64,000 nucleotides of DNA from the UHGV virus genome UHGV-2031204. The stretch is one strand, 5' to 3'. Below the pieces are notes generated by a model. It was not told the DNA's origin. It was given only the letters and a program-made list of their open reading frames with translations, and searched no databases. Shown here in pieces: positions 12,712 to 41,731 of this stretch. Position 1 is the first letter of the stretch. Every line of letters starts with the position of its first letter. Position numbers and translations under genes: made by a program. The DNA is from a virus.

Positions 12712-13194
12712 ATGGCACAAGTAATGTCTACTAAAGAACTGGCTGCAATGATCGATGCGCTGGAAACTCCGGCAATGACTATGGACGAAAGCGCGGTACT
12801 TAACGCAGACCCGTTAATCAAAATCTACGAAGAATCACTTCCGGTCATCAAAGTGAACGACACCGATTATCGTCTGACGCTACAGGATGCGGATGCGGTT
12901 CGCCAACACGATGCAAACTTCCTGGAAGTCTACGGTAAGGTTGCATCAGAACTTATCGTTGAGAAAGCGAAAGCAGACGACGAATTGGTCGCACTGGACC
13001 TTACCACGAATATTGGTAACGCGTCGTTCTCTACGGTGTTCTCACGTCCAACTGGGGAAACAGTAGGGGCGTCTGAATGGGCAGCTTCTATCGGCTTTGG
13101 TTACGGTGTACCTAAGTCAAAAGAGCTGGAAGGGAAAATGCGCAAAGTGTTTGCCGATGCGATGATGGCGGGCGATGACGAAGACGACGAATAA
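12712..13194 (+). CDS. hypothetical protein with acidic C-terminus
   Basis: 160-aa ORF, AAGGAA RBS, C-terminal GDDEDDE; followed by two intrinsic terminators. Confidence 0.65.
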   Translation: MAQVMSTKELAAMIDALETPAMTMDESAVLNADPLIKIYEESLPVIKVNDTDYRLTLQDADAVRQHDANFLEVYGKVASELIVEKAKADDELVALDLTTNIGNASFSTVFSRPTGETVGASEWAASIGFGYGVPKSKELEGKMRKVFADAMMAGDDEDDE

Positions 13195-13212
13195 GATCGG
13201 TATTATTTCAGG

Positions 13213-13235
13213 AGCCCGACTATATCGGGCTTTTG
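13213..13235 (+). terminator. intrinsic terminator
   Basis: AGCCCGACTATATCGGGCT hairpin followed by TTTTG. Confidence 0.6.
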
Positions 13236-13353
13236 TTCCTGAAGAGAAAATCAATCCTACGAAATGGCAACAACCTCTTTCTCGGAAGCCAGGGCCACCT
13301 AGACCGATTGATGGTCTGGTTTACCTGAGCCACCGACGGAGAAAATAAAATCT

Positions 13354-13384
13354 AGGGCGGTCTTATGACCGCCCTATTTTTTTT
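13354..13384 (+). terminator. intrinsic terminator
   Basis: AGGGCGGTCTTATGACCGCCCT hairpin followed by T8. Confidence 0.75.
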
Positions 13385-13403
13385 GATTTCAGGAGATAAA
13401 ACA

Positions 13404-13961
13404 ATGCAAAACTTATTCGATGGTTATCCCATGGCTCAAGAAAAGCCGAATACAGAACGGCCCGTACCGCTTCCTAACGTCATGAACCGTACAGAAGTCA
13501 TTAGTCATCTTAACCAGATCGGTGAAATCTTTACGTTGTCTATGCAAGCCACTTTAGGTGATGCGTTTCCACACATCGCGGGCTGGCCTGCTGAAACGAT
13601 CCCACACACTATCAACGGCTACCAGCGTTTCTTAACCGAAATACGTAGCAGTTCTGTCGGTAATGTCGTCGCCGGTTACGTTATCCGTTTCAAACAACTC
13701 TTACGGATTGAGTTCGGTGAAGATGTATTAGAAGCGTTAGAATCTGAATTGGTTAGCTTGCACAACAACGAAATTATACGTAACGAAAAAGGAAATGGCG
13801 ACACAGAACTAACACTGTGGCGTGTTGCTTATCCCAGCGACACCACCAACACACCACCCACCACGTTCGATTTACTCTCTACGTTCCTGCTGCTAATGCA
13901 GATGAAAAACTTAATTATTCGTTCTTCTGCCCGTAAACAACTGGCGCAAGAAGAAAAATAA
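13404..13961 (+). CDS. hypothetical protein
   Basis: Start chosen at ATG 13404 after AGGAGA RBS (ORF track begins at 13365 inside the terminator). Confidence 0.65.
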   Translation: MQNLFDGYPMAQEKPNTERPVPLPNVMNRTEVISHLNQIGEIFTLSMQATLGDAFPHIAGWPAETIPHTINGYQRFLTEIRSSSVGNVVAGYVIRFKQLLRIEFGEDVLEALESELVSLHNNEIIRNEKGNGDTELTLWRVAYPSDTTNTPPTTFDLLSTFLLLMQMKNLIIRSSARKQLAQEEK

Positions 13962-13967
13962 AAGCTA

Positions 13968-14008
13968 CCTACCTCCATGACGGAGGTAGGTAAACTTATT
14001 TTTTTTTG
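13968..14008. terminator. bidirectional intrinsic terminator between convergent genes
   Basis: CCTACCTCCATGACGGAGGTAGG hairpin flanked by A-run upstream and T9 downstream. Confidence 0.75.
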
Positions 14009-14009
14009 C

Positions 14010-14885
14010 TTAACGAAGCTGATTTGCCATCTGCTCGTCGGACACAGAACGATAACCGCCAGCCGTAGCATCGACGTCTGGGTTGATGCCGTTGGTCTGT
14101 TGAGACGGAGTAAGCCACAGTTTGCGTTCGTAAGGACGCAGGCCGTAAAGCTTCATGCGCTCCAGTTCTTTCTGAGCTGCCTGCATCGGACCCCAACCTG
14201 TCCATTGCTGGGAGGTGAAGGTGATAGACAGTTCGTTGGTCTGAGGACCGGTGTTCGGGTCACGTTCACCGATATCCTGACCGTTAGACTCAGGAGCCAT
14301 GTTCGTCAGCCACCAAGCGTTCTGCGGTTTACGCTGATACGCATCCGGTTCGAAATACAGCACGGTCATGCTGTACATATCCGGCAGGTGGTCAGGAACG
14401 TTCGGGTTGATTGCCGCCAGACCAGGGTGGCCTGTGTGCGGGTCACAAACACCGTATACCAGCCACGCCCAGAGCATGTTCTGATACACTTTACCCAGTT
14501 TATCCGGGGTCGTGTGCGTAACCGAAGACAGTGCTTCGGTTACCAGACCAGCTTCGTACTGAACGCGGTTGTTACGTCCCTGCTGAGTCTGTACGTACTC
14601 AGCACTCAGGGATTTGTCCAGGCCGGTAATCGTGGTGTGAACCTCGATGAACGATTTGATTGCCTGACGCCACAGTTGTGGGTTCGGCATGTAATCAACC
14701 CAACGAGGGAACTCCATCACACGTGCGATTACGTTACGACGCAGACGGTGGGCGTTGGTAACGAACTTACCAACCTGACCGACCGGACCGTTTTGACCAG
14801 ACGAGAAGGGGTTAACCATATCGTACTGGCCGCCGTCGACGTGGAGGCCCTGGTCAGGTAAAATCATGCGTTCTTTGATAGACAT
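14010..14885 (-). CDS. hypothetical protein, probable abundant virion structural component
   Basis: 291-aa minus-strand ORF; GGAGG RBS and TAATAGATG stop-start coupling with the upstream 685-aa gene; opposite-strand ORF 13977..14861 is Arg-rich antisense-like. Confidence 0.7.
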   Translation of the reverse strand: MSIKERMILPDQGLHVDGGQYDMVNPFSSGQNGPVGQVGKFVTNAHRLRRNVIARVMEFPRWVDYMPNPQLWRQAIKSFIEVHTTITGLDKSLSAEYVQTQQGRNNRVQYEAGLVTEALSSVTHTTPDKLGKVYQNMLWAWLVYGVCDPHTGHPGLAAINPNVPDHLPDMYSMTVLYFEPDAYQRKPQNAWWLTNMAPESNGQDIGERDPNTGPQTNELSITFTSQQWTGWGPMQAAQKELERMKLYGLRPYERKLWLTPSQQTNGINPDVDATAGGYRSVSDEQMANQLR

Positions 14886-14888
14886 CTA

Positions 14889-16946
14889 TTAGACCTCCGT
14901 ACTGTTGCGACGATAAACTTTGATCGTCGTGTTGAACTGCGACAACAGTACACCGCCTTCAGCTTTAATGTCCAGCGTGATAGAGTAGCCATTGGCTTTA
15001 TCGTCCGCTGTCATATACGCACTCGGGGTAATGTCGGCAATATTATCCAGGCGACCTTCCAAACGCTCGGTGATTTTGTTTTCAATCATTTTCGCGCGTT
15101 CGTCGTCCGTCATACGGCTTTCACCGGACATATCTGCCCAAACCTGATCACTGACACGATAAACGTAAGTCAGGATAAAGTTAAACAGTGCATTGTTCAG
15201 CACTGAACGTTCTTCGCTATAGATGGACTGGATAGCTGGGATGAACAAACGATAGTAGTCGCGGGAACGTGCGGTAACCAGAGACACATCCCAGTCGGAT
15301 GCGTAAATCTCGTTACCTTTCCACGGCATACTCAAATCGTACAGATCTTCGATGATCGTCTCTTCACCACGGCTGAAACGATACGCCGGTTTTGCACGTC
15401 CTTCACCGGAACCGAGATACTTCGAGAAGAAGTTCGCAATGCTATAACACATCGGAACCGGTTTCTTGTAGCTCGAGTTACGGATGAATGCAGACTGGCC
15501 AGTAATCATCCCACGGCACGCCGGGGTACCGTAATAGGACGACTCAGGCACGGACGTAATCATTTCGATCAGCGCTGTCTTCACGTTCTCTTCGGTTTGT
15601 AAGTCATTACGACCTTCGTTATAAACGTGAGTACAGAGTGTCAAGAACGTGTTACGAGAACGGCCAATGAAATTGGTCAGCACTTTCTTGGTATCCATGC
15701 TAAAACCGGAGTCCCAGAAGCAGCCTAACGAATATTTCAGTTCGTTATCGTAACGGACTTTACCGCCGTCCGGGAACAGGCTCATCTCACGACGCACGAG
15801 TTTGTCGTAAGCATCGTTACCCATCGTCCCGTCACTACCGCCCTGCAGATAGTGAATATTAGAAGCAGAAAAGACAACTTTACCCACTTCATCAGATGGG
15901 CTAACTTGCAGACCATCGTACATTTGACCGGTTAAATCCAGACCGCCGAAGATATCGACCATATACGGATCGGTAATCGCTGGTTTCGCATTCTGAATTT
16001 TAGACTGTGCCAGTTTCAGAACAGTTTCCAGGTTTTCACGGTAAATGTAGAACTCTTCGAAAGGACCGTAGTCCGGCAGACCGCCGATGTCTGGCATCGT
16101 CTGACGATAGGCATCTGGAACAACGACTTCGAAGTCCAGTTGAGTAGCCATCGGCTGATAGTATGCATCGGGCTTGAAGCTAACATTGATGCTGCTAAGA
16201 CCTTTAATGGTCTTCCAAATTACCGGCGATGTAACCCCTGCTAAGGTTTCAAACCATTGCAGTGCGTACATACGTCCACCTACGTTGGTCTGATAAGCAG
16301 ACGCGATAGATGGGCTGGATTTTTCGTTCAGCGGAACCAGTTTAAAACCGAAACCGTTGACATCAGCACCCGCATACGGGCCTTTAATGTCGAAGATCGG
16401 ATAAAGCTTTGATTTCGCGCTGGTGGTTTCGTCGGTCATTGTCCCTTCAGTAACCACACCTTTTTTCAGGGTGCTTACATCTTCGACAACTTGCAGACGG
16501 AAAACCACTTTCAAGCCATCAACGTCTTCTTTCTTCTTCGGCTTACCGTTAGTTTCATACTGGATAATGCCGTTCACACGCTCGTATGAAGGAACTTTGG
16601 TTTCGAGGACGTCAGCCACCAGACGGACAGCTGCGACTTTCGCATCGTCCGGCACCAGACGCTGATACATACACTCGTTACCATTGGCATTAAACATCGC
16701 CTGGAAGGGTGTGTTGAACGTCGCGTAATCGCCACGCAGGTCGAACAAATCACGACCAAGCAGAGACAATGCATTATCCCCGGATAACGGGAACGCCTCG
16801 TCGTCTACCCCGCGTGATGCAAAGGTGAAGATCAGCGGCTTATGAATCGGATCACCCGTGGGGGTCCGGACAAGCTCAGGGACAGAGTTATCCTGCCACC
16901 CTTGCTTGTTATTCAATGGCGCGCCGTTTCGTGGAATAAAACTCAT
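14889..16946 (-). CDS. hypothetical large protein, probable virion structural component (sheath or capsid class; unresolved)
   Basis: 685-aa minus-strand ORF co-oriented and coupled with 14010..14885; size fits myovirus sheath or major capsid proteins; no diagnostic motif seen. Confidence 0.65.
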   Translation of the reverse strand: MSFIPRNGAPLNNKQGWQDNSVPELVRTPTGDPIHKPLIFTFASRGVDDEAFPLSGDNALSLLGRDLFDLRGDYATFNTPFQAMFNANGNECMYQRLVPDDAKVAAVRLVADVLETKVPSYERVNGIIQYETNGKPKKKEDVDGLKVVFRLQVVEDVSTLKKGVVTEGTMTDETTSAKSKLYPIFDIKGPYAGADVNGFGFKLVPLNEKSSPSIASAYQTNVGGRMYALQWFETLAGVTSPVIWKTIKGLSSINVSFKPDAYYQPMATQLDFEVVVPDAYRQTMPDIGGLPDYGPFEEFYIYRENLETVLKLAQSKIQNAKPAITDPYMVDIFGGLDLTGQMYDGLQVSPSDEVGKVVFSASNIHYLQGGSDGTMGNDAYDKLVRREMSLFPDGGKVRYDNELKYSLGCFWDSGFSMDTKKVLTNFIGRSRNTFLTLCTHVYNEGRNDLQTEENVKTALIEMITSVPESSYYGTPACRGMITGQSAFIRNSSYKKPVPMCYSIANFFSKYLGSGEGRAKPAYRFSRGEETIIEDLYDLSMPWKGNEIYASDWDVSLVTARSRDYYRLFIPAIQSIYSEERSVLNNALFNFILTYVYRVSDQVWADMSGESRMTDDERAKMIENKITERLEGRLDNIADITPSAYMTADDKANGYSITLDIKAEGGVLLSQFNTTIKVYRRNSTEV

Positions 16947-24496: not shown

Positions 24497-24537
24497 AGCC
24501 AGTAACCCTAACGGGTTACTGGCTAACTCTTTTTTAT
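24497..24537. terminator. bidirectional intrinsic terminator
   Basis: AGCCAGTAACCCTAACGGGTTACTGGCT hairpin followed by T-run; lies between convergent genes. Confidence 0.75.
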
Positions 24538-25910
24538 TTCTGTAACGACCGGATTAAGAAATATAACAGCAACGCATTACGCAAAGCTGCTAACGCGGAT
24601 TCGTGACGGATGTGTGTTTCCTTCGCCGCCAGTTTCTCAATTCTCGACCGCAAGGATAACACGTACGGGTTCGGTGATTTCGATGCCTGATACAACGCAC
24701 GCATACGCTGCAACACCGTCACCGCATCGTTGAAGTTGATACGGTTGGTAACAATCTCATCAAAAGCGTGTGAGAGTGTATCCTCCATAATGCTATTGAT
24801 TTCATCACGCTTCTTACCGATTGGTAAACTGGCGATATAGGTCAGTAACGTTTTCAGCGCAGCAGGAGATGCTTTGGGCACCATTTCTAGCACCACACGA
24901 GCCAACTCTTCCTTGTACAGATTGTTAATGTCGTAAGACGCATCAAACAGATTCTGTTTTGCAATCTCTAGTGCACCGACTTTATCACGAATCACAGACT
25001 GCCCATCTAACTCGATGCGTGCAGACTGACTAACCACGCGAGTATTCTCACGACGTACACGATCGAGCACCGCGTAGTAGTCTTTCACGGTTTGTTTCGT
25101 ACGTGTATTTAAATCGGTGATATAACGCAGTACCAAGTCGGGAGTATCGAAACGTTTTACGGCGTCGTAGTTCGGGTATTCGGGCGAGCAGAAATACGTT
25201 GCACGTTCTGCCATGTGCAGCCCCCAGTTACCCAAACGACGAATATCGAATTTCATTGAGAGCATCGAATACGCCGCTTCTGCTGCGGGAAGATCAACCG
25301 GTTTCGGAAAGAAGTGATAGTAAATACTCGAGTAGAATTTAAACTGGAGTATCGTCACCAGATCGATGGCTGCAGCGAGGATTTCTTTGTCGCCAAACTT
25401 TGGAATCATCAGGTGCAGCAAATACACGATGGTCAGGTTATACGTATCACCCGCGACCTGCCAATCGGTATTAATCGACTGAGACTCTTTAATCAGTTCC
25501 GACAGATAATCTTCGTCAACGTTAATAACTTCATCGAACAGACGATTACGGTCTGAATCGAAAAAACGGATGCTGTGAACACCGAGGAGGTTCGACCCTA
25601 ACCACTCCACGTTACCTTCACGAGAGAGTATTCCGCTTACGTAGTGGCGCAACTTAGACGCCAATTTGCGATCAATCACGAGTTTATTAAACACGCCGTC
25701 AAACGCTTTACGTAAACGGTCGTCGCGACGGGCTTCGTGTGCAACAGAGAATCCCATCGGGACGTAGCCACCAAAACCGTAGTCGTAGTACAAACCCGAT
25801 GAGGTTTCCGCGCCATCGAAGAACGGATCACGGCCGAACGATTCCTGAGCGACGCGAGTTCCAGCTTTCTGGTAGCAGCCGGATGTAAAATCATAAACCA
25901 GTTCAGCCAT
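24534..25910 (-). CDS. hypothetical protein
   Basis: 458-aa minus-strand ORF, convergent with terminase operon, divergent from the 25984 gene. Confidence 0.7.
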   Translation of the reverse strand: MAELVYDFTSGCYQKAGTRVAQESFGRDPFFDGAETSSGLYYDYGFGGYVPMGFSVAHEARRDDRLRKAFDGVFNKLVIDRKLASKLRHYVSGILSREGNVEWLGSNLLGVHSIRFFDSDRNRLFDEVINVDEDYLSELIKESQSINTDWQVAGDTYNLTIVYLLHLMIPKFGDKEILAAAIDLVTILQFKFYSSIYYHFFPKPVDLPAAEAAYSMLSMKFDIRRLGNWGLHMAERATYFCSPEYPNYDAVKRFDTPDLVLRYITDLNTRTKQTVKDYYAVLDRVRRENTRVVSQSARIELDGQSVIRDKVGALEIAKQNLFDASYDINNLYKEELARVVLEMVPKASPAALKTLLTYIASLPIGKKRDEINSIMEDTLSHAFDEIVTNRINFNDAVTVLQRMRALYQASKSPNPYVLSLRSRIEKLAAKETHIRHESALAALRNALLLYFLIRSLQK

Positions 25911-25983: not shown

Positions 25984-27108
25984 ATGAGAAATTACTTACG
26001 TAAACCCGTTTGGCACAGAATGCTGCGCGAAGGTACCATCGACCGAAATCAAAACGTCAAAATGTGGGTTCTTCCACACGGCGTAATTTGTGATTTAGTT
26101 CGTGTCGGTGGTATGGACATTTTGCGCAACGGTACCTACGATGCGGTCAACTCGTTTCTTGCACGCGAATTGGCAGAGGCAGGTTTACATGGCGAAATTC
26201 TGTTTTACACCACACGCGTTATTCCACAAACCCTGTCGAAATGGTTAACGTACTGGTTGTCTGGTGATCCTGACGCATCGGACCCAGAACTCAACTCAGT
26301 AACAATTACAACGTTGGGACAATACCCAACGAAACCGCTACCATTTCAGGTAAACGTAGTAGAGCCGTTAATTGTAAAAGCAGGTGACGTCTTCGACACG
26401 ATTAAAGCTAAATCCAGAAACCAAGCGGTTTCACAGTTCCTCGTAGAAACTGAAAATGAGGTGTTTCGCCTGGAACCCGTCCGTAAAACGGATGCCACGT
26501 TACTGGCAGTCACCGACTACGGTGTGGTGTGCCGTTCTACAGAAGGTCACACTTTCCTGTGTACAATTTTGTCTCGTCGTATACAAGCCCAGTTAGCGCA
26601 CTACAAACTGAGTTTGAACGACATCATCGGTACTACGTTACGCATCGAATACACGATGTACACCGATGGCAACAGGTTGTGTAACTACAAGTCACCTATC
26701 GCGTATCGAGCACTGGCGTTAGACAGTCTCGGTGATTGGGTTTCAACGACATACGATGGGCCTTCACCGTTTAAAACAATCCCGACACAACGGCCTGCGT
26801 TGCTGACGGTTACACGCTGCAATCGTGCTGAAATCTACGAGGAAAATGGGGTGATTTATGGCTTAGAACGTGAGACAGGATTAACGCTGTTTCGTTTCCG
26901 CCGAGGCCCAGAATACGGGCGTTACGCTGCCGTTTTCGAACGGGAAGGGGAACAAGAAACCTGGCTATTCGATTCCGATTTCTCGGTTGACGTTATCGAC
27001 CCTGAAGGGTTTATTGCTTCGGTCGGAAATCAGGTGTTCTACGCCACCGGTTACAGTTTGGTCGATGTGAAACTGTACTATCCGTCAAAAGAACTGACGA
27101 CTCTGTAA
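25984..27108 (+). CDS. hypothetical protein (early-promoter-motif gene)
   Basis: 374-aa ORF with CCTAAAGGAG leader and upstream promoter-like motif; strong terminator follows. Confidence 0.7.
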   Translation: MRNYLRKPVWHRMLREGTIDRNQNVKMWVLPHGVICDLVRVGGMDILRNGTYDAVNSFLARELAEAGLHGEILFYTTRVIPQTLSKWLTYWLSGDPDASDPELNSVTITTLGQYPTKPLPFQVNVVEPLIVKAGDVFDTIKAKSRNQAVSQFLVETENEVFRLEPVRKTDATLLAVTDYGVVCRSTEGHTFLCTILSRRIQAQLAHYKLSLNDIIGTTLRIEYTMYTDGNRLCNYKSPIAYRALALDSLGDWVSTTYDGPSPFKTIPTQRPALLTVTRCNRAEIYEENGVIYGLERETGLTLFRFRRGPEYGRYAAVFEREGEQETWLFDSDFSVDVIDPEGFIASVGNQVFYATGYSLVDVKLYYPSKELTTL

Positions 27109-27118
27109 AAAATATTCT

Positions 27119-27156
27119 GGGGAGACTTCGGTCTCCCCCGTTTTTATTTTTTTTTG
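27119..27156 (+). terminator. intrinsic terminator
   Basis: GGGGAGACTTCGGTCTCCCC hairpin with TTCG loop followed by long T-run. Confidence 0.8.
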
Positions 27157-27659
27157 CCCAAAATCAAAAAACGCGATGAGAGCGATTCTAACGCATTTTT
27201 CTTCCAGGTGGTACGTTCGTACCCCTTACCCACGTTTATCTCTCCAGAGAGCTTCCTACGAAGAATTTGAGGGTGTTTTGGTTGTGGGTTTTGAATTTAT
27301 TTTCACTCAACGCCATGAAACCGCGATTTTGTCGTTCGTGCTGTCACGCCAACCCCTATCCCTGGGTGGGACGAAAACCCACCCCATCGTAAAACGCTCT
27401 AAAACGCTTTTTGACGCAAAAATCTTCTCAAGGGGTACACTTGGGTACCCGAACCCCGTTTAATTCGTTACAGCTCGATTGAGAGCGTCTGAGGGGCATT
27501 CCCCTCGACCAGTTCCACCCCACCCTCGGGTCGGCGAACCGGCCGCCGCGACGATCAAAAAAACATTCACGCTTCGCGTACTAGCGGATCAGCTGGATTG
27601 ATCAACTTACTGAATCTTCACACACTGAAGATTCAGGTTGAGTAGTTCTCTAGCTTTGG

Positions 27660-27940
27660 TTTTTTGATCTTTTAAAATTTTTAATACTCTTCGAGAGACT
27701 TAGTGTCTCTCGAATCGATCTTAAATTTTTAACTCTTTCAAAAATCTGATCTCAAGATCTCTTCCTTATACGCGTGTGCGCACGCACACGTATAGTATAA
27801 TATATTTATTTATAAATATATTATTCCTTTAGGATCAAAATAATAATACCTTTAGGTATTATTTAATTATATATTTTAATATATATTATATATAAATATA
27901 TATAAAACGCGCGCGATCCTTATTATGAGATCTGATCTCG
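27660..27940. other. candidate replication origin or DNA-unwinding element: AT-rich core with palindromes, flanked by a GATC cluster
   Basis: Eight GATC sites between 27666 and 27937; ~115-bp almost pure A/T core with palindrome AATAATACCTTTAGGTATTATT; no credible ORF. Confidence 0.3.
27767..27794. repeat. alternating pyrimidine-purine tract (Z-DNA-prone)
   Basis: TATACGCGTGTGCGCACGCACACGTATA at the edge of the AT-rich core; a second CGCGCGCG tract at 27908..27915. Confidence 0.8.
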
Positions 27941-28802
27941 CTATGACCCCCCTGAGGGGGTAGGGATCGGTGAGCGGTATTTTCCAGAAAAAACCGAAAA
28001 TCGTACCCGGGGTAATTCGCCAGGGTAAAATCCCCACCTGGGGGATCGGGTAGGGGTCTACCCCGAACACCTGACCGAGGGGTGTAAAACCCATTCCCCT
28101 TTTTCGAACGTTAAAACCCTATGGTATGTTCGGAGGATTTGCGTGGGATGATTTACAAATCCAACCACGAAGATTTTTCGGAGTTCAGGAGTTTACTGCT
28201 CACAGCTCAAACACGATTTCTGTCTGCGAAGATTCAGCAGAGCTCGAAGCCCCCTGACCGGATGTTGGTTTGGGGGTTGTTTTTTCGAGTGCATGGAATT
28301 TATTTCGCCGTGTACTGGGAAAAACAAAACGTTCAGCCTAACACTGGAGTTTGTTTTACTATGGGGTTTGAAAATCGATTTGCCAATCGAACTTACCCCG
28401 AGGGATTTTTGGAATCCCCAGAGTTCAGGTGCTCGGTACCGTTTCCCCGACTTACGAGTGTTGGGGAGCCCGCGCTATCAGTGACGCGTGGACCACATGA
28501 GAAAATCCGAGGGAACCGTGGCAGCCTCTGGGAGCGACGTTGGCGAAAGGTCCGTAGAACTTACCTGCGGGCAGCCGACGGTGGGATACGCTCCCAGAGG
28601 TGCGGCCAGAATGCGAATTACGACGTTGCGTCGAATGACCCTGCTCCAGGTAGCGCTGGCAGTGTGATGTCCTCTAGCTTGACGGCTCGCAAAGACGAGA
28701 GGGGTGCGTACTCCCGTTGAGAAACGCCGGTACGCAGCTGAATTATTTTTTTTTACAGCGTTTCCTGTTGGTGTGACACAAACCACGGCAGGAGATTTTA
28801 AT
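27940..28802 (+). other. hairpin-dense non-coding segment (candidate structured RNA or array of protein-binding palindromes)
   Basis: Stacked inverted repeats: CCCCCTGAGGGGG, AAAACAAA/TTTGTTTT, GGGATTTTTGGAATCCC, and a perfect 12-bp repeat CCTCTGGGAGCG/CGCTCCCAGAGG (28525..28536 and 28589..28600); only SD-less, Arg-rich ORFs. Confidence 0.3.
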
Positions 28803-29165
28803 ATGGATTCCAAAAACACCACTAACGTGGAATTGGATGTTCAGTACAGGCTCGATGAGTTGGCAGCTCTGTTAAAAGCCCCGGAGGACTGGGGATGCAC
28901 GGAGCCAGCGTTACTTGATTTGATCAAGAGCGTGCGGATTTACCAACCCGTCGAGATTTACATCACGGTAGTTGTGGAAGTTCACGATGGTTATTGCGTG
29001 GAACACATCCCTAGCCCTATTGCGCATTATCCGAGCTATCGAGAGTGTCTCCTGGTAGCCGTTCGTGAAGGCTTGGCTCGTGCGATTCGTGAACATGTTA
29101 CGCGATGCACGAACCCGATGGCAGCTGTTGATCAGGTGGACAGCAATGAGTTAGGAATTCTGTGA
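28803..29165 (+). CDS. hypothetical protein
   Basis: ATG 28803 after GGAG at 28791; stop overlaps the HslV-like start; ORF track 5' extension lacks an RBS. Confidence 0.6.
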   Translation: MDSKNTTNVELDVQYRLDELAALLKAPEDWGCTEPALLDLIKSVRIYQPVEIYITVVVEVHDGYCVEHIPSPIAHYPSYRECLLVAVREGLARAIREHVTRCTNPMAAVDQVDSNELGIL

Positions 29166-29665
29166 TGACCACGATTGTTTTTGACGGAAAGACGTTAGCT
29201 TGCGACGGTCAAGTCACCGTGGAAGAGCGTAGTGCTGCCACGCAATACCGTAAGATCCACACGCCGCCCGAGGGTACGACGTGGAATCTTTTGGGTGAAG
29301 ACGTAAAAGCGTTTGGTTTGGCAGGCGATGTCGCCGCATTGCAATCTGTGCGTCAAGAACTCACGCTTGAACGTTTCGGTGGTATCGAACGGGGTGGGGT
29401 TCGTTTTGAAACGACGTATCCCGAACAGATTGATTTTATCGTACTTGCTGTTTTGACAGACGGGCGCGTTATCGACGCCTCGAAATGCAAAGACAACAAA
29501 TACGCCAGTTACGTGTTTGTAGAGCCACCGTATGCGATAGGCTCAGGTGCACACTATGCCCTGGGTGCGTTAGGCGCAGGCGTTGACGCCCCCACTGCGG
29601 TGGAAGTGGCGAAACGTTACGACCTGTACAGCGGTGGACAAACGCAATCACTTAAGCTGTTTTGA
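29165..29665 (+). CDS. hslV: HslV-like Ntn-hydrolase peptidase (proteasome beta-type)
   Basis: MTTIVFDGKTLACDGQVT matches HslV [22 protein letters not shown] including the Thr nucleophile after Met; AFGLAGDVAA resembles AGFAGGTADA; YAIGSGAHYALGALGAG resembles IAIGSGGPYAQAAARAL; ~166 aa. Confidence 0.75.
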   Translation: MTTIVFDGKTLACDGQVTVEERSAATQYRKIHTPPEGTTWNLLGEDVKAFGLAGDVAALQSVRQELTLERFGGIERGGVRFETTYPEQIDFIVLAVLTDGRVIDASKCKDNKYASYVFVEPPYAIGSGAHYALGALGAGVDAPTAVEVAKRYDLYSGGQTQSLKLF

Positions 29666-29672
29666 TGTATTA

Positions 29673-29748
29673 GGGGGTGTAGCACAATTGGTAGTGCAGC
29701 GGTCTCCAAAACCGAAGGTTGGGAGTTCGAAACTTCCCGCCCCCGCCA
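29673..29748 (+). tRNA. tRNA-Trp (anticodon CCA)
   Basis: 76-nt cloverleaf read by hand: acceptor GGGGGTG/CGCCCCC, D-arm GCAC-AATTGGTA-GTGC, anticodon loop CTCCAAA, T-arm GGGAG-TTCGAAA-CTTCC, discriminator G, encoded CCA; very similar to E. coli tRNA-Trp. Confidence 0.85.
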
Positions 29749-29812
29749 GATTTTAGCCACTAAGTTCATTCTCAACACAGAAAACGATATGTGTTATCTG
29801 TGGGAGAAAATT

Positions 29813-30049
29813 ATGAACTTGTATCTAGTAGAAAGAACCGACAGCGTTGGTTGGGATGAATGTTCCGCAATGATTGTTGCAGCCCCTACGGAAGAAGCTG
29901 CATGTGCAATTCTTCCTTGCGAGTCTGGCTGGACTGGTGAGTTGTTATTGGATGGAGATGTGGAAGAGGTTACCCTCAAAGCCACACTCCTCGGTACGAC
30001 ACACTACCCAGAGGGGGAGGTTCTTTACACTGATTACCTATACGGCTAA
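29813..30049 (+). CDS. hypothetical small protein
   Basis: ATG 29813 after GGGAG; 78 aa; followed by hairpin GTGGGCTTCGGCCCAC. Confidence 0.5.
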   Translation: MNLYLVERTDSVGWDECSAMIVAAPTEEAACAILPCESGWTGELLLDGDVEEVTLKATLLGTTHYPEGEVLYTDYLYG

Positions 30050-30219
30050 AACAGTGGGCTTCGGCCCACTAACCTAATTAGAACAATCGAACAAGAGTCA
30101 CAAACTCGTCAGCCTTCAACTGAGGGTCGGTTGTTCTGATAACTTCTGCTCTTGCTCACGGGTAGAAAGCTCCTTAAAAACGTGTAAACACCTACCGATT
30201 AAGTTCGGACTTACGTTAG

Positions 30220-30285
30220 GGTCGTGAGACCCTGGTGGTTAGACCACCTAAACGGTTGTACGGTGGGAGGATAAAACCTCCCACC
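30220..30285 (+). other. three consecutive perfect hairpins in a non-coding leader
   Basis: GGGTCGTGAGACCC, GGTGGTTAGACCACC and GGTGGGAGGATAAAACCTCCCACC in tandem. Confidence 0.4.
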
Positions 30286-30588
30286 TGCACCCACCAAGAA
30301 TTTAATTATTGGGTATTTCCCCTAAGTGTAACGTGAATACCCTGTAATGTGAATTGAGAGTTACGTGTTAACTCGACGGTACTGGTCGATGATCACCTGT
30401 AAACCTTCATCGTCCCATGTCATGCTGTGTTTGACCAGTACCGAACTTTGTCGCTATGCCTGGTGACGTGGCTACACACCGAGGCTGGGGCTCGACACCC
30501 GTTAGCGACACCCTTTTTGCGTTATTGTCAGTATTCTGAAGCTGTGTTCAGTGACAGTAGCGTTTTTTATTCGCGTTGGCGTTTGTAC

Positions 30589-30630
30589 CATTGCTGCCCT
30601 TGCTGTCATTGCTGCCACTGCCTGCTGCGC
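30589..30630 (+). repeat. short tandem repeat of a TTGCTGYCM nonamer (about four units)
   Basis: CATTGCTGCCCTTGCTGTCATTGCTGCCACTGCCTGCTGCGCC. Confidence 0.7.
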
Positions 30631-30724
30631 CTCAACAGACGTTCAACGCGTCCCATTAACCCACACGTCGGGGTATAGCGACGTACAACAGAACGAGTAG
30701 TAGTAACAGAACGAGGTAACAGAA

Positions 30725-31372
30725 ATGCTTACAGTAAAACGCATTATTAACGGTGACCGTGTCATCACTGTGCACGAACGTGTACGTTTAGGTGACAAAA
30801 TGTCCCGTGTTTACAAAGAAGCACTTAAAGTCGCCAATGGCGAAGATAATGAATTGTGTTTTGATAACGCGATTGATTTGCCGAGAAAACCGAAATCGGT
30901 GGGTTATACAGCTTTAACTGATATGTCCGTAGAGGAACAGAAAAGCACCTTAGCCAACCTGCATCCGTTTTTGCACAATGTGTCAGATTGGACCGTTGTC
31001 ATTGGTGGTCGACCTATTCCAGAGGATGTACCACGTGTGGTGATCGTTAACCCGCGTATGCCGTCCTTCGAAGAAAAGAATTCGCCAGTCGACGAAATTT
31101 ATATCCCTGGCAATAATTTCTATTGCCGGTTTTGTGGCTTTACACAGCGTGAAATGACGTATGTGATGCCACCTCAAGAAATCCAATTAGTCCGCGAGTT
31201 GATTAACGAAGATGGTGATACCTTCTATCAGAATCAGCTCCGTAGCGGTAAGCACTCAGTTGACGAGGCTATCGGCGTTTTACTCGTCGATGATGCTTAC
31301 GAATTTTTCTATCCAGGGGATGTGGTTTACATCATGAACAATGAAGGTAAAACCATTGATACCCTGCGATAA
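30725..31372 (+). CDS. hypothetical protein
   Basis: 215-aa ORF; terminator at 31478..31516. Confidence 0.65.
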   Translation: MLTVKRIINGDRVITVHERVRLGDKMSRVYKEALKVANGEDNELCFDNAIDLPRKPKSVGYTALTDMSVEEQKSTLANLHPFLHNVSDWTVVIGGRPIPEDVPRVVIVNPRMPSFEEKNSPVDEIYIPGNNFYCRFCGFTQREMTYVMPPQEIQLVRELINEDGDTFYQNQLRSGKHSVDEAIGVLLVDDAYEFFYPGDVVYIMNNEGKTIDTLR

Positions 31373-36917: not shown

Positions 36918-37532
36918 ATGTACAAAGTACGGGGTGATCATTTCATCCGTCCGAACTTAGGGTTACTGGAATACGCCACAGGTGGCGATTTCTATAAAGA
37001 TAAGTTAGTAAGAACCCTAATGCGCTTTCGCTGTATGCGAGTGTCTTTTCCTGCAACGATAGAGACGACGGATGAAGCAACGCGATATATCAATACCGCG
37101 ATTAGCGAGTTATCGAAAGCGTGTAACTTTCCTGGCAATAAAAGGGAACTGAAAGAGTTAGACAGTTACCTGAAACGGTTAAACGATGAATACCGGCAGT
37201 GGGAATTTAACTCAATGATGGAAACCAGTTATACGGAAGACATGATTGAGGATATGCGACCCCTCCTGGAAATCTATGAGTTATGTAAAATACAAGGCGG
37301 GTCTTCTTGGGATGTGTTGCGTGAACACGCGATAGAAATTCTTCGCGATAATATTCTCCAGATTTACGAGAATGATTGCGAACCCGTTATCCAGCTCTTT
37401 CGTACCGCACACAAATGTGGTATTGAGGGCCTGTGTTTAAACTTATCGTTACACGATGACTTAGGTACCGTTTCAGGTGTTTACGCTACGTTCCATCTGG
37501 ACATCACAATGTTGAGGAGTGATAATGTTTGA
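36918..37532 (+). CDS. hypothetical protein
   Basis: 204-aa ORF, TGAATG junction with upstream gene. Confidence 0.55.
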   Translation: MYKVRGDHFIRPNLGLLEYATGGDFYKDKLVRTLMRFRCMRVSFPATIETTDEATRYINTAISELSKACNFPGNKRELKELDSYLKRLNDEYRQWEFNSMMETSYTEDMIEDMRPLLEIYELCKIQGGSSWDVLREHAIEILRDNILQIYENDCEPVIQLFRTAHKCGIEGLCLNLSLHDDLGTVSGVYATFHLDITMLRSDNV

Positions 37533-37938
37533 TTTTAGTAACATTGAACCAGGGTCTATCGTAAATATTGTTTACGATACCCCGTTAAAAGGTAATGAAA
37601 CGCGAGTGCGTGTACTCGCGTCTAAAGTCGGCTATGAGTTTGCAAAAACCGCAGGCGAAGATCTGGCTGCTATCCAGAAGAACATTTATTCGTCGTTAGT
37701 AGCACAACCTTCAAATGACCTCACTGCGTATAACTATATGCTGTTCCGCGATTCTACAGGTAAAGTAGGCGTTGCGGCAGATGCATGGGTACGCGAAGTA
37801 AGGGTAATTACCAGTTTGACAGCACGTTTTGTTGTACAGCTCGATAACAAGCAGGAGAAAGAAGACCTGGAAGCTGCGTTGGCAGCACGTGGGTTTAATG
37901 ATGTGGAAATCGAGATCATTGAAAACGCGGCAGGTTAA
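37519..37938 (+). CDS. hypothetical protein
   Basis: 139-aa ORF with GAGGAG RBS; strong terminator follows. Confidence 0.6.
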   Translation: MIMFDFSNIEPGSIVNIVYDTPLKGNETRVRVLASKVGYEFAKTAGEDLAAIQKNIYSSLVAQPSNDLTAYNYMLFRDSTGKVGVAADAWVREVRVITSLTARFVVQLDNKQEKEDLEAALAARGFNDVEIEIIENAAG

Positions 37939-37943
37939 TCGAA

Positions 37944-37985
37944 AATGTCCTCTCTTCGGAGAGGACATTCTTCTTTCTTTTTTTT
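37944..37985 (+). terminator. intrinsic terminator
   Basis: AATGTCCTCTCTTCGGAGAGGACATT hairpin followed by T-rich run. Confidence 0.75.
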
Positions 37986-38039
37986 CACGTTACCCACCCT
38001 CCTTATAGCCGAGTTAAACTGCCTTTTTAGAGGACAGCC

Positions 38040-41696: not shown

Positions 41697-41731
41697 TTGA
41701 AAAATATCTGAGAAAGATATTATCTATGTGA
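41697..41731 (+). promoter_or_regulatory. conserved promoter-like element, extended copy 1 of 2
   Basis: TTGAAAAATATCTGAGAAAGATATTATCTATGTGA in divergent intergenic region. Confidence 0.55.

Follow-up and report, generated by a model that had tools for sequence, protein, structure and literature searches.

GOLLD and ROOL RNAs are abundant and assemble into cages made only of RNA; they are known mainly from prophages and metagenomes, in which experimental manipulation is difficult, and we know of no function for either. GOLLD is a phage RNA of more than 800 nt that occurs near tRNA islands and has a conserved 3' region and a variable 5' region, and ROOL (Rumen-Originating, Ornate, Large), likewise large and ornate, occurs in phages and prophages, often near tRNA islands (bioRxiv 10.1101/2024.12.08.627333). 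Both assemble into homo-oligomeric RNA-only nanocages. The likeness of the RNAs described here to GOLLD and ROOL is one of context and architecture only. Non-tRNA RNAs are also found in the tRNA region of phage T4, where the stable RNA species 1 and 2 (about 120-140 nt) lie within the tRNA gene cluster and are processed from it. The RNAs described here resemble these as non-tRNA RNAs of a phage tRNA cluster but are 0.65-0.84 kb long and multi-domain.

The locus lies in a window of 64,000 nucleotides, the whole stretch of DNA that was analyzed, from the virus genome UHGV-2031204. Our analysis suggests that it is probably a conserved non-coding hub whose two arms hold new, GOLLD/ROOL-like large phage ncRNAs, beside a candidate promoter, origin or pac site. 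Evolution has maintained a + strand secondary structure in both RNAs, neither of the arms is protein-coding, and the cassette between them turns over.

Setting and synteny of the locus

The window comes from an SPN3US-like, nucleus-forming (Chimalliviridae) jumbo phage; its 458-aa virion protein is 80-84% identical to the counterparts in SPAsTU, SPN3US and phiEaH2. The block has the structural/terminase module on one side and the replication/transcription module on the other. A first-pass annotation had described two arms, 27109..28802 and 30050..30724, as lacking any credible CDS and as bracketing a cassette that includes an HslV-like gene and tRNA-Trp. Coordinates and content were as described, and the features are as follows:

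27119..27146, + strand: intrinsic-terminator hairpin GGGGAGAC-UUCG-GUCUCCCC with U-run, closing the 374-aa gene
27390..27760, + strand: conserved array of non-coding hairpins, 5' of the AT core (alignment A6)
27551..28050, unstranded: GATC cluster, 13 sites in 500 bp (counted in 500-bp windows)
27767..27794, unstranded: alternating purine-pyrimidine tract TATACGCGTGTGCGCACGCACACGTATA, left of the AT core (read from the sequence)
27795..27907, unstranded: AT-rich palindromic core (about 90% AT, with palindromes)
27905..28745, + strand: left-arm large structured RNA, about 840 nt, approximate ends (fold z = -9.2, covariation)
28121..28720, + strand: spurious 199-aa ORF inside the left-arm RNA
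28424..28742, + strand: conserved 3' domain of the left-arm RNA (covariation across four genera)
28803..29165, + strand: 120-aa orphan gene (ORF kept in relatives)
29162..29665, + strand: HslV-like (Ntn-hydrolase) gene (phrog_1040, E 1e-35)
29673..29748, + strand: tRNA-Trp(CCA) (detected by ARAGORN and Rfam)
29789..30049, + strand: 86-aa gene (phrog_5444)
30077..30724, + strand: right-arm large structured RNA, about 650 nt (alignment A8; fold z = -6.2 for 30050-30724)

The control region, left-arm RNA, HslV-like gene, tRNA-Trp and 86-aa gene form a syntenic block in Seoulvirus, Erskinevirus, Wellingtonvirus and Machinavirus. With synteny in four genera and turnover confined to the inner cassettes, the earlier proposal of an acquired accessory island is not supported as worded. 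The parts that turn over are the tRNA, which is swapped, an inserted HNH gene, small ORFs and the right-arm RNA. The 86-aa gene accompanies tRNA-Trp across genera (40-52% aa identity) and is followed here by a UUCG-loop hairpin at 30053-30070; the pair is missing from the close relatives L007, L022 and L023, where tRNA-Ile(AAT) takes its place. The HNH endonuclease ORF is inserted in Kwan and Wellington only, their closest relatives L014, L025 and L027 being without it. A group I/II self-splicing intron was rejected on this distribution, the non-coding flanks and the lack of an Rfam intron match.

The 120-aa orphan ORF matched no Pfam or PHROG family, and it persists as an open frame in L022 (99% aa identity) and in L007 (44%). 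It is the first ORF 3' of the left-arm RNA in the window, a position held by the HslV-like gene in SPN3US and by other ORFs in Kwan/Huxley. The product of the HslV-like gene resembles a protease subunit; it retains an N-terminal MMTTIV and a GSG motif, and its relatives carry the HslV family annotation. Between the 374-aa gene and the control region, where the window has 27146-27390, related phages carry one to three extra small CDSs. ARAGORN and the Rfam tRNA model found tRNA-Trp alone, and relaxed ARAGORN gave scattered noise on both strands; a tRNA, tmRNA or pseudo-tRNA array was rejected on these results. In relatives, tRNA arrays occupy the right-arm position, lying just downstream in SPAsTU, pEa_SNUABM_29 and pEa_SNUABM_9 and comprising up to 15 or more tRNAs.

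Structured RNAs in the two arms

Perfect hairpins with stems of at least 7 bp occurred at 13.6/kb in the left arm and 5.9/kb in the right arm, compared to 2.2/kb in the remaining window. The roughly 6-fold enrichment of the left arm was concentrated in 27109-27905. Folding energy was well below that of shuffled controls for both 27905-28745 (z = -9.2) and 30050-30724 (z = -6.2). Local 120-nt z-scores were strong in patches only, and since comparable patches occur at other intergenic sites, the claim that the hairpins are unlike the rest of the sequence holds for their density and not for individual hairpins.

The sole long ORF of the left arm, the 199-aa frame, matched no Pfam or PHROG family, and its similarity to relatives was spread over several reading frames. 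When both arms were compared with relatives by tblastx, all six frames matched equally, and conservation is therefore at the nucleotide level rather than the protein level. The first-pass annotation had named conserved protein-coding genes across the arms of related phages as evidence against it; the relatives have no conserved CDSs across the conserved arm segments. Compared to L007, conserved blocks of the arms exceeded the adjacent genes in identity (89-99% in 27701-28200 and 28501-28800 and 99-100% in 30101-30700, against about 70-90% in the neighboring genes), although recent recombination, and not selection, may explain why the right arm is nearly identical.

The left-arm RNA is found in four genera and in metagenomic contigs, almost only those of 220-250 kb, and its SPN3US equivalent is SPN3US 150-1140. 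It starts with the box GATCCTTATTA-GAG (27915-27928), which is missing from two Machinavirus-type sequences and differs by one base in Kwan and L025. There follow a variable 5' domain (27930-28270), a central helix (28279-28289/28315-28325) and CCUAACACU (28337-28345); the part 5' of the 3' domain measures 202-589 nt in relatives and is poorly alignable. Invariant motifs alternate with hairpins of variable length in the four genera.

In the 3' domain, a long-range helix pairs UUCAGGU (28424-28430) with a 3' GCUGA. The invariant or nearly invariant motifs are CCGYGG, a GAACUUACCU loop, a CGACG-UUG-CGUCG hairpin and AGACGAGAGGGG, and the terminal hairpin (28705-28736) has a GNRA loop, GAGA, at 28719-28722. 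RNAalifold predicted 41 pairs, 18 of them compensatory. Pairing was kept in 97.8% of cells, compared to 32-44% when the partners were slid, and none of 500 shuffles was as high; with 25 distinct sequences, including metagenomic ones, the value was 96.1%. Across alignments, 96-98% was base-paired with 18-19 compensatory pairs. A covariance model of the domain (R1) gave 194 bits and found one copy in the window and one in the SPN3US genome. GNRA and UUCG loops and abundant G-U pairs assign this RNA to the + strand.

The right-arm RNA starts at the tRNA cassette junction and extends as far as the start codon of the following gene. Its alignment, A8 (seven sequences of four types), has 174 predicted pairs, with 17 compensatory, few broken and many G-U pairs; the G-U pairs of left and right arm alike indicate the + strand. 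By nhmmer, the right-arm RNA was matched in the window's sub-lineage only. The suggestion that the arms are one or more large non-coding RNAs is supported by conserved secondary structure and many compensatory changes in both.

It is very improbable that the arms are instead decayed genes or a recently acquired mobile island, in which pseudogenized CDSs or tRNA remnants form hairpins by chance. The small CDSs of relatives are missing here, relatives have tRNA arrays at the right-arm position, and cassette turnover and HNH insertion mark a plastic locus, as this explanation would have it. However, the tblastx similarity is independent of reading frame, no credible extra tRNA emerged from relaxed ARAGORN, the conserved blocks are more conserved than the adjacent genes, and synteny extends over four genera. 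The helices of both arms are kept by compensatory substitutions, and it is this covariation that largely refutes decay.

In every genus examined, the left-arm RNA ends 30-60 nt 5' of an ORF on the same strand, and in some lineages, including that of the window, a U-run follows its terminal hairpin. Because of these two observations, the RNA could be a giant cis-regulatory leader, acting by attenuation or RBS masking on the HslV-like/tRNA operon; the right arm, which starts at the tRNA cassette junction, would then be a trailer or tRNA processing platform. We regard this as unlikely, as the first downstream ORF differs among genera, the U-run is not conserved, and a conserved multi-domain structure of 500-1000 nt is far larger than known bacterial leaders. 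T-box and other riboswitch leaders in particular were rejected, with no Rfam match and a U-run past the terminal hairpin in some lineages only.

The control region and the AT-rich core

At the position of the terminator, most aligned relatives have a UUCG-loop hairpin with a different stem sequence, and the hairpin of the window is readable as a terminator on the - strand too. SPLA1a/MET_P1 and Kwan align less clearly there. The conserved DNA/RNA control region (about 27390-27930) combines covarying UUCG-loop hairpins with 13 GATC sites in 500 bp. Its hairpin array carries the motifs AAAACGCTCTA, GGTACACTTGGGT and CGACGATCA, a UUCG hairpin at 27569-27579 and further hairpins at 27610-27636 and 27690-27714. 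Alignment A6 has 21 consensus pairs, 11 of which show compensatory changes, and G-U pairs and UUCG loops point to an RNA of the + strand. Identity of the array to L007 is merely 57-71%.

Across the window, 500-bp segments contain 1.53 GATC sites on average (sd 1.41), and after the 13 at the cluster the next-highest count is 5; the segment 27550-27930 is the densest cluster in the window. The genome-wide GATC maximum of SPN3US (10, mean 1.0) falls at the same locus. A second CG tract, ACGCGCGCG, lies to the right of the AT core at 27907-27915, and equivalents of it and of TATACGCGTGTGCGCACGCACACGTATA are conserved in all genera. Within the core, TAGGTATTATT, which nearly matches the phage's recurrent promoter-like motif TAGATATTATC, lies in a conserved hairpin (27842-27863); the core is a candidate promoter and/or DNA-unwinding element.

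In SPN3US this locus is the most AT-rich 150 nt (79% AT) of the 240 kb genome. The detrended cumulative GC skew reaches its minimum 1.4 kb away and its maximum on roughly the opposite side of the genome (113 kb), but the skew largely tracks gene orientation, so that the minimum may mark merely an orientation or module boundary. The skew of + strand genes in the window changes from about 0 upstream to about +0.1 downstream of the locus, and - strand genes shift likewise, a step that is confounded, as is the SPN3US minimum, by gene orientation and the module boundary. For a replication/regulatory hub, as had been proposed, the support is circumstantial: the densest GATC cluster and, in SPN3US, the most AT-rich segment and proximity to the skew minimum.

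Structured transcripts serve as primer or regulator in ColE1 (RNA II), and T4 oriF and oriG are origins with a promoter and an unwinding element. With oriC-type, P1 pac and ColE1-type control regions the locus shares an AT-rich unwinding-type segment, dense GATC, an adjacent candidate promoter and a structured transcript; it differs in that some assemblies read through the AT core site, and is a candidate origin or pac.

As a replication origin or RNA-primed origin, the locus would use the AT core as unwinding element, the GATC sites for methylation-sensitive control and the transcript as primer or regulator. We consider this possible but doubtful. An origin is expected to combine the AT-richest segment with GATC clustering, and this was found, both as genome-wide maxima in SPN3US and as the 13 sites in 500 bp of the window; alternating CG tracts and palindromes lie beside the core, and the skew minimum and the shift in genes of both strands could fit as well. 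On the other hand, the SPN3US skew mostly follows gene orientation, and a search that was incomplete for iterons identified no DnaA boxes, iterons or initiator gene. Moreover, constraint is strongest in an RNA domain 0.6-0.9 kb from the AT core, whose tertiary-type features (GNRA loops, a closed multi-helix junction) are needless for a primer, and the right-arm RNA would be left unexplained.

The pac site of phage P1 is Dam-regulated, and the GATC cluster, about 3 kb from the large terminase gene, could likewise be a Dam-regulated pac site or part of a terminus region. Such a site would account for the many genome records and contigs that start at the locus. About a dozen GenBank records have the conserved 3' motif 840-1130 nt from the record start, and contigs in IMG/VR and ENA either stop at positions equivalent to 27796 and 27808 or begin about 730-910 nt 5' of the motif. 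However, the AT core is crossed without a break by three metagenomic contigs (222-229 kb) and by the window itself, and the starts of GenBank records are frequently taken over from SPN3US. In IMG/VR contig 113438 the core is split, with one side at each end of the contig, the pattern expected where the assembly of a circular or permuted genome breaks at a palindromic segment of about 90% AT. A pac or terminus region is quite improbable.

Comparison with GOLLD and ROOL

Like GOLLD, the left-arm RNA is phage-encoded, with a 3' domain conserved in four genera, a variable 5' part (202-589 nt) and a length of about 840 nt compared to about 800 nt or more. tRNAs lie just downstream, tRNA-Trp at 0.9 kb. 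It differs from GOLLD in that protein genes separate the RNA from the tRNAs, and its hosts are Enterobacterales nucleus-forming jumbo phages. Rfam cmscan gave no match to the left-arm RNA, and the GOLLD covariance model none, in the window at the gathering threshold or in slices of 4 kb and 0.9 kb at E<=10; an Rfam scan of the homologous SPLA1a RNA gave no GOLLD match. The right-arm RNA, directly 3' of the tRNA cassette, is similar to ROOL in size and context but is confined to one sub-lineage, and the ROOL covariance model had no match in 26900-30900 at E<=10.

On the + strand, the order runs from the terminator of the upstream gene through the control region, the ~840-nt RNA gene and the protein/tRNA cassette to the ~650-nt RNA. 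The AT core would supply the promoter, and both RNAs would be made together with the tRNA island. Rather than serving as mRNA leaders, they would be stable RNAs that fold and act on their own, as scaffolds or particle-forming RNAs in the manner of GOLLD/ROOL. The AT/GATC region may also be a replication origin or a packaging/regulatory DNA site. Since the upstream hairpins also resemble + strand RNA, the AT core may not be where the promoter lies, and the arm as a whole is possibly one longer transcript.

More tentatively, SPN3US-like phages may possess an unrecognized class of giant structured RNA, autonomous RNA machines produced from the AT/GATC hub together with the tRNA island, as the jumbo-phage (Gram-negative) counterpart of GOLLD/ROOL. 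It could be speculated that such machines are cage or scaffold RNAs that handle tRNAs or ribosomes, or that they couple origin firing to early transcription. The RNA of about 0.84 kb is conserved in four genera, and further RNAs would be specific to single lineages.

The arms of this island are not junk but hold genes for two large structured RNAs with no match among described RNA families. This finding fills the unannotated start, of about 1.2 kb, of the SPN3US reference genome and flags the likeliest promoter, origin or pac region in this group of phages, and the AT core accounts for many assemblies of these phages breaking at one spot. SPN3US is a genetically tractable model phage for which an amber-mutant collection exists. 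The ~840-nt RNA, with no Rfam match, is present in SPN3US, Asesino and relatives, which are cultured phages, and it would offer a direct experimental handle on the role of such RNAs beside tRNA islands.

Coding content and conservation of the locus

By its protein content, the window is that of an SPN3US-like jumbo phage, because its 458-aa protein (24534..25910, minus strand) is 80-84% identical to virion proteins of the Salmonella phages SPAsTU and SPN3US and the Erwinia phages phiEaH2, Asesino and Stratton. Nucleus formation has been shown for two members of this group, SPN3US and Asesino (PMC13282480). Megablast identified no close DNA-level relative among GenBank phages, and relatives were reached via protein anchors and motif scans. 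The nearest sequences were metagenomic contigs, at about 80-94% identity. On the SPN3US map, the locus sits between modules, with structural and terminase genes upstream and the genes for DNA polymerase, RNA polymerase subunits and helicase downstream.

The first-pass annotation had described two arms (27109..28802 and 30050..30724) with no convincing CDS on either side of a gene cassette (28803..30049). The ORF listing bore this out, as neither arm contained a credible gene. The sole long ORF (28121..28720, 199 aa) had no family match in Pfam or PHROG and its similarity to relatives was scattered over several reading frames. When both arms were compared to relatives by tblastx, all six frames scored equally, which reads as the signature of conservation at the nucleotide level. 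Together, these results ruled out protein coding in the arms. The cassette itself is real and the features of the locus are as follows.

Features of the locus (window positions)
27119-27146: terminator, made up of a UUCG-loop hairpin and the U-run after it
about 27390-27930: control region, with short motifs and hairpins common to several genera
27767-27794: alternating CG/CA tract within the control region
27795-27907: AT core, about 110 nt and full of palindromes; a second CG tract also lies in the control region
about 27905-28745, + strand: left-arm large structured RNA, from alignment and covariation
28803-29165: 120-aa orphan gene, its ORF kept in the related sequences L022 and L007
within the cassette: HslV-like gene (phrog_1040)
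within the cassette: tRNA-Trp, the sole Rfam match above chance level
within the cassette: 86-aa gene (phrog_5444), which accompanies tRNA-Trp in other genera
30077-30724, + strand: right-arm structured RNA, from consensus pairs in the window's sub-lineage

An unannotated stretch of 1-1.7 kb occurs at the same position in members of Seoulvirus, Erskinevirus, Wellingtonvirus and Machinavirus. In all four genera small ORFs come next, then the HslV-like gene, tRNA-Trp and the 86-aa gene, usually with further tRNAs behind them (six in SPAsTU, as many as 15+ in pEa_SNUABM_9). The block is therefore not a recent insertion, and the proposal of an acquired accessory island is not supported as it stood. 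Comparative evidence instead describes an old locus with inner cassettes that turn over.

The tRNA/protein cassette between the RNAs varies. In relatives, one to three extra small CDSs, absent from the window phage, separate the 374-aa gene from the conserved non-coding part. In L007, L022 and L023, a tRNA-Ile(AAT) takes the place of the window's tRNA-Trp and 86-aa gene, and the alignment reads as a clean cassette swap at 29672/30077. The anticodon of this tRNA is unusual (L007 10721-10797; L023 1675-1751; L022 1810-1886).

Structured RNAs of the two arms

Both arms had been noted as rich in hairpins, and the counts agree: per kb, the left arm has 13.6 perfect hairpins and the right arm 5.9, compared to 2.2 elsewhere. 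Folding of the arms is also much stronger than that of dinucleotide shuffles (z = -9.2 and z = -6.2). Secondary hot spots of perfect hairpins are found at 13000-15000 and about 37000-38000 (8-9 per kb bin), and sliding local folding, with mononucleotide shuffles as controls, gave strongly negative z-scores at such spots (e.g., 13261, 37861, and 40501).

In an eight-phage alignment, the left-arm RNA has the invariant blocks GATCCTTATTA.GAG, UUUUUCGA, CUAACACU, UUCAGGU, ACCGUGGCA, GAACUUACCU, CGUUGCGUCG and AGACGAGAGGGGUG, separated by hairpins variable in length and sequence. For its 3' domain (28416-28755, 19 sequences), RNAalifold predicted 41 pairs, 18 of them compensatory, and these pairs include a domain-closing long-range helix as well as a terminal hairpin capped by a GNRA loop. 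Paired cells amounted to 97.8%, compared to 32-44% when partners were slid, and the observed values were reached in none of 500 shuffles. The set was enlarged using a covariance model of this domain (R1) and motif scans of IMG/VR and metagenomes, and 25 distinct sequences gave the same result (96.1% paired, 19 compensatory pairs). About two thirds of the 29 motif-scan matches lay on contigs of 220-251 kb and the rest on shorter ones (1.6-152 kb). Read on the opposite strand, its many G-U pairs would turn into A-C mismatches, which places this RNA on the + strand.

Ahead of the 3' domain, the RNA is shortest in Huxley (202 nt) and longest in SPAsTU (589 nt). Relatives share within this variable stretch a central helix, formed by 28279-28289 and 28315-28325, with 87% pairing. 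The RNA is single copy in both the window and SPN3US, and in the SPN3US RefSeq record the first ~1.2 kb, which holds it (covariance-model match 881-1134), carries no annotation. No homologues were found at the syntenic loci of the more distant Chimalliviridae Phobos, Ea35-70 and phiKZ. In Kwan (L009 5178-5687) and Wellington (L013), a variable hairpin of the 3' domain is interrupted by an inserted HNH homing-endonuclease ORF; the closest metagenomic relatives of these phages (L014, L025, and L027) are without it.

The complement of the invariant loop GAACUUACCU was not enriched in the window in a search for targets. The invariant 3'-domain loop GAACUUACC has two occurrences, at 28389-28400 and 28557-28566; the additional copy, the one in the middle domain, is confined to the window lineage. 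The loop sequence looks like a 16S rRNA segment and like the U1 snRNA 5' end, probably by coincidence.

The right-arm RNA (30077-30724) starts at the exact junction of the swapped tRNA cassette and is conserved at 75-99.5% in L007, L022, L023, L042, L043, L046 and L048, the window's own sub-lineage. Seven sequences of four types gave 174 consensus pairs, 17 of them compensatory and very few broken, with a 14-bp closing helix and a long-range helix (30379-30388 with 30445-30454) changed via C-G and G-U substitutions. Outside the sub-lineage, nhmmer returned no match, the whole SPN3US genome included, and relaxed ARAGORN gave only noise for hidden tRNAs or pseudo-tRNAs in this arm. An imperfect tandem CATTGCTGCC/CTTGCTGT repeat (30582-30632) carries an indel of 18 nt in L023 or 17 nt in L048 and L043. 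In SPN3US, the counterpart (L032 2154-3456) spans about 1.3 kb of different, likewise non-coding sequence, where an annotated 'tRNA-OTHER' overlaps a minus-strand CDS; this stretch may hold another lineage-specific RNA.

The right arm is 99-100% identical (99.5%) to L007 10801-11448, while the flanking genes are only about 80% identical and the small gene at 28803-29165 only 47-69%. This mosaic suggests recent recombination among phages of the same metagenome (3300045988), and the near-identity of the right arm would reflect both constraint and a recent exchange among phages that co-occur.

The compensatory pairs in both arms show two + strand RNA structures kept by evolution, in agreement with the suggestion of one or more large non-coding RNAs, and this covariation largely ruled out decayed genes as the origin of the arms. 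The arms might instead be a giant cis-acting leader and trailer, given that an ORF adjoins and some lineages have a U-run; this is unlikely, as the downstream gene changes between relatives and the sheer size of the RNAs weakens the idea.

Control region and AT core

At the terminator site, a hairpin is kept in most aligned relatives with a different stem sequence. In the control region, 11 of 21 consensus pairs show compensatory change, and UUCG loops and G-U pairs favour + strand RNA for its hairpins. A hairpin in the AT core (27842-27863) is likewise kept in other genera with different sequences, and it contains TAGGTATTATT, which is close to TAGATATTATC.

It is TAGATATTATC, instead of GATCCTTATTA, that appears as the recurrent promoter-like motif. 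It has six + strand sites, exact or with one mismatch (25936, 33913, 41714, 41794, 51286, and 55074; one reads AAGATATTATC), and a GAAA(A)TAA-like sequence stands in front of them. At four sites, an ATG with an AGGAG-type ribosome-binding site follows after 20-55 nt; no start codon was seen within the 60 nt examined at 41714 and 51286. Jumbo-phage early promoters have been described as AT-rich ~10-mers centred near -10 (PMC7598289), and TAGATATTATC is probably the phage's own promoter consensus. As a general promoter motif, GATCCTTATTA was ruled out, being unique to the locus except for one match within a gene.

The locus includes a DNA segment of extreme AT content and GATC density. Overlapping the control region are 13 GATC sites in 27551-28050 (window mean 1.5 per 500 bp, next-best 5). 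In the complete SPN3US genome, the same locus is the most AT-rich 150-nt window and also ranks first in GATC density (10 per 500 bp, with a mean of 1.0 and 6 in the runner-up); the detrended cumulative GC skew reaches its minimum 1.4 kb away and its maximum at 113 kb. In the window, + strand GC skew is about 0 for genes upstream and about +0.1 downstream, regardless of gene orientation. This coincidence of AT, GATC and skew extremes could mark a replication origin, possibly RNA-primed. We regard this as possible but doubtful, since the coincidence is confounded by gene orientation and an origin leaves the distal, tertiary-type RNA constraint unexplained.

The AT core is where many records and contigs start or stop, as a pac or terminus site would predict; the contigs that read through weaken this explanation, which we consider quite improbable, and they contradict fixed physical genome ends at the core. 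As the flanks of the core are found at opposite ends of IMG/VR contig 113438 and three other contigs continue across the core, assembly breaks at AT-rich palindromes offer the simplest reading. Such DNA-level roles are compatible with RNA genes and may coexist with them.

Relation to known large phage RNAs

Rfam searches at the gathering threshold and at E<=10 (4 kb, a 0.9-kb slice, and the SPLA1a homologue) returned only tRNA-Trp and chance-level matches, and no prior description of these RNAs was found in Rfam 15 or the searchable literature. Their closest analogues are GOLLD and ROOL, large ornate phage RNAs close to tRNA islands that assemble into RNA-only cages of unknown function; GOLLD is more than 800 nt long and combines a conserved 3' region with a variable 5' region (bioRxiv 10.1101/2024.12.08.627333). 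Because the likeness covers architecture and context but does not extend to a covariance-model match, the window RNAs are most likely a new family of the GOLLD/ROOL kind rather than members of either. Transcription would start in or near the AT core, and the RNAs would be made along with the tRNA island and then act as stable folded RNAs.
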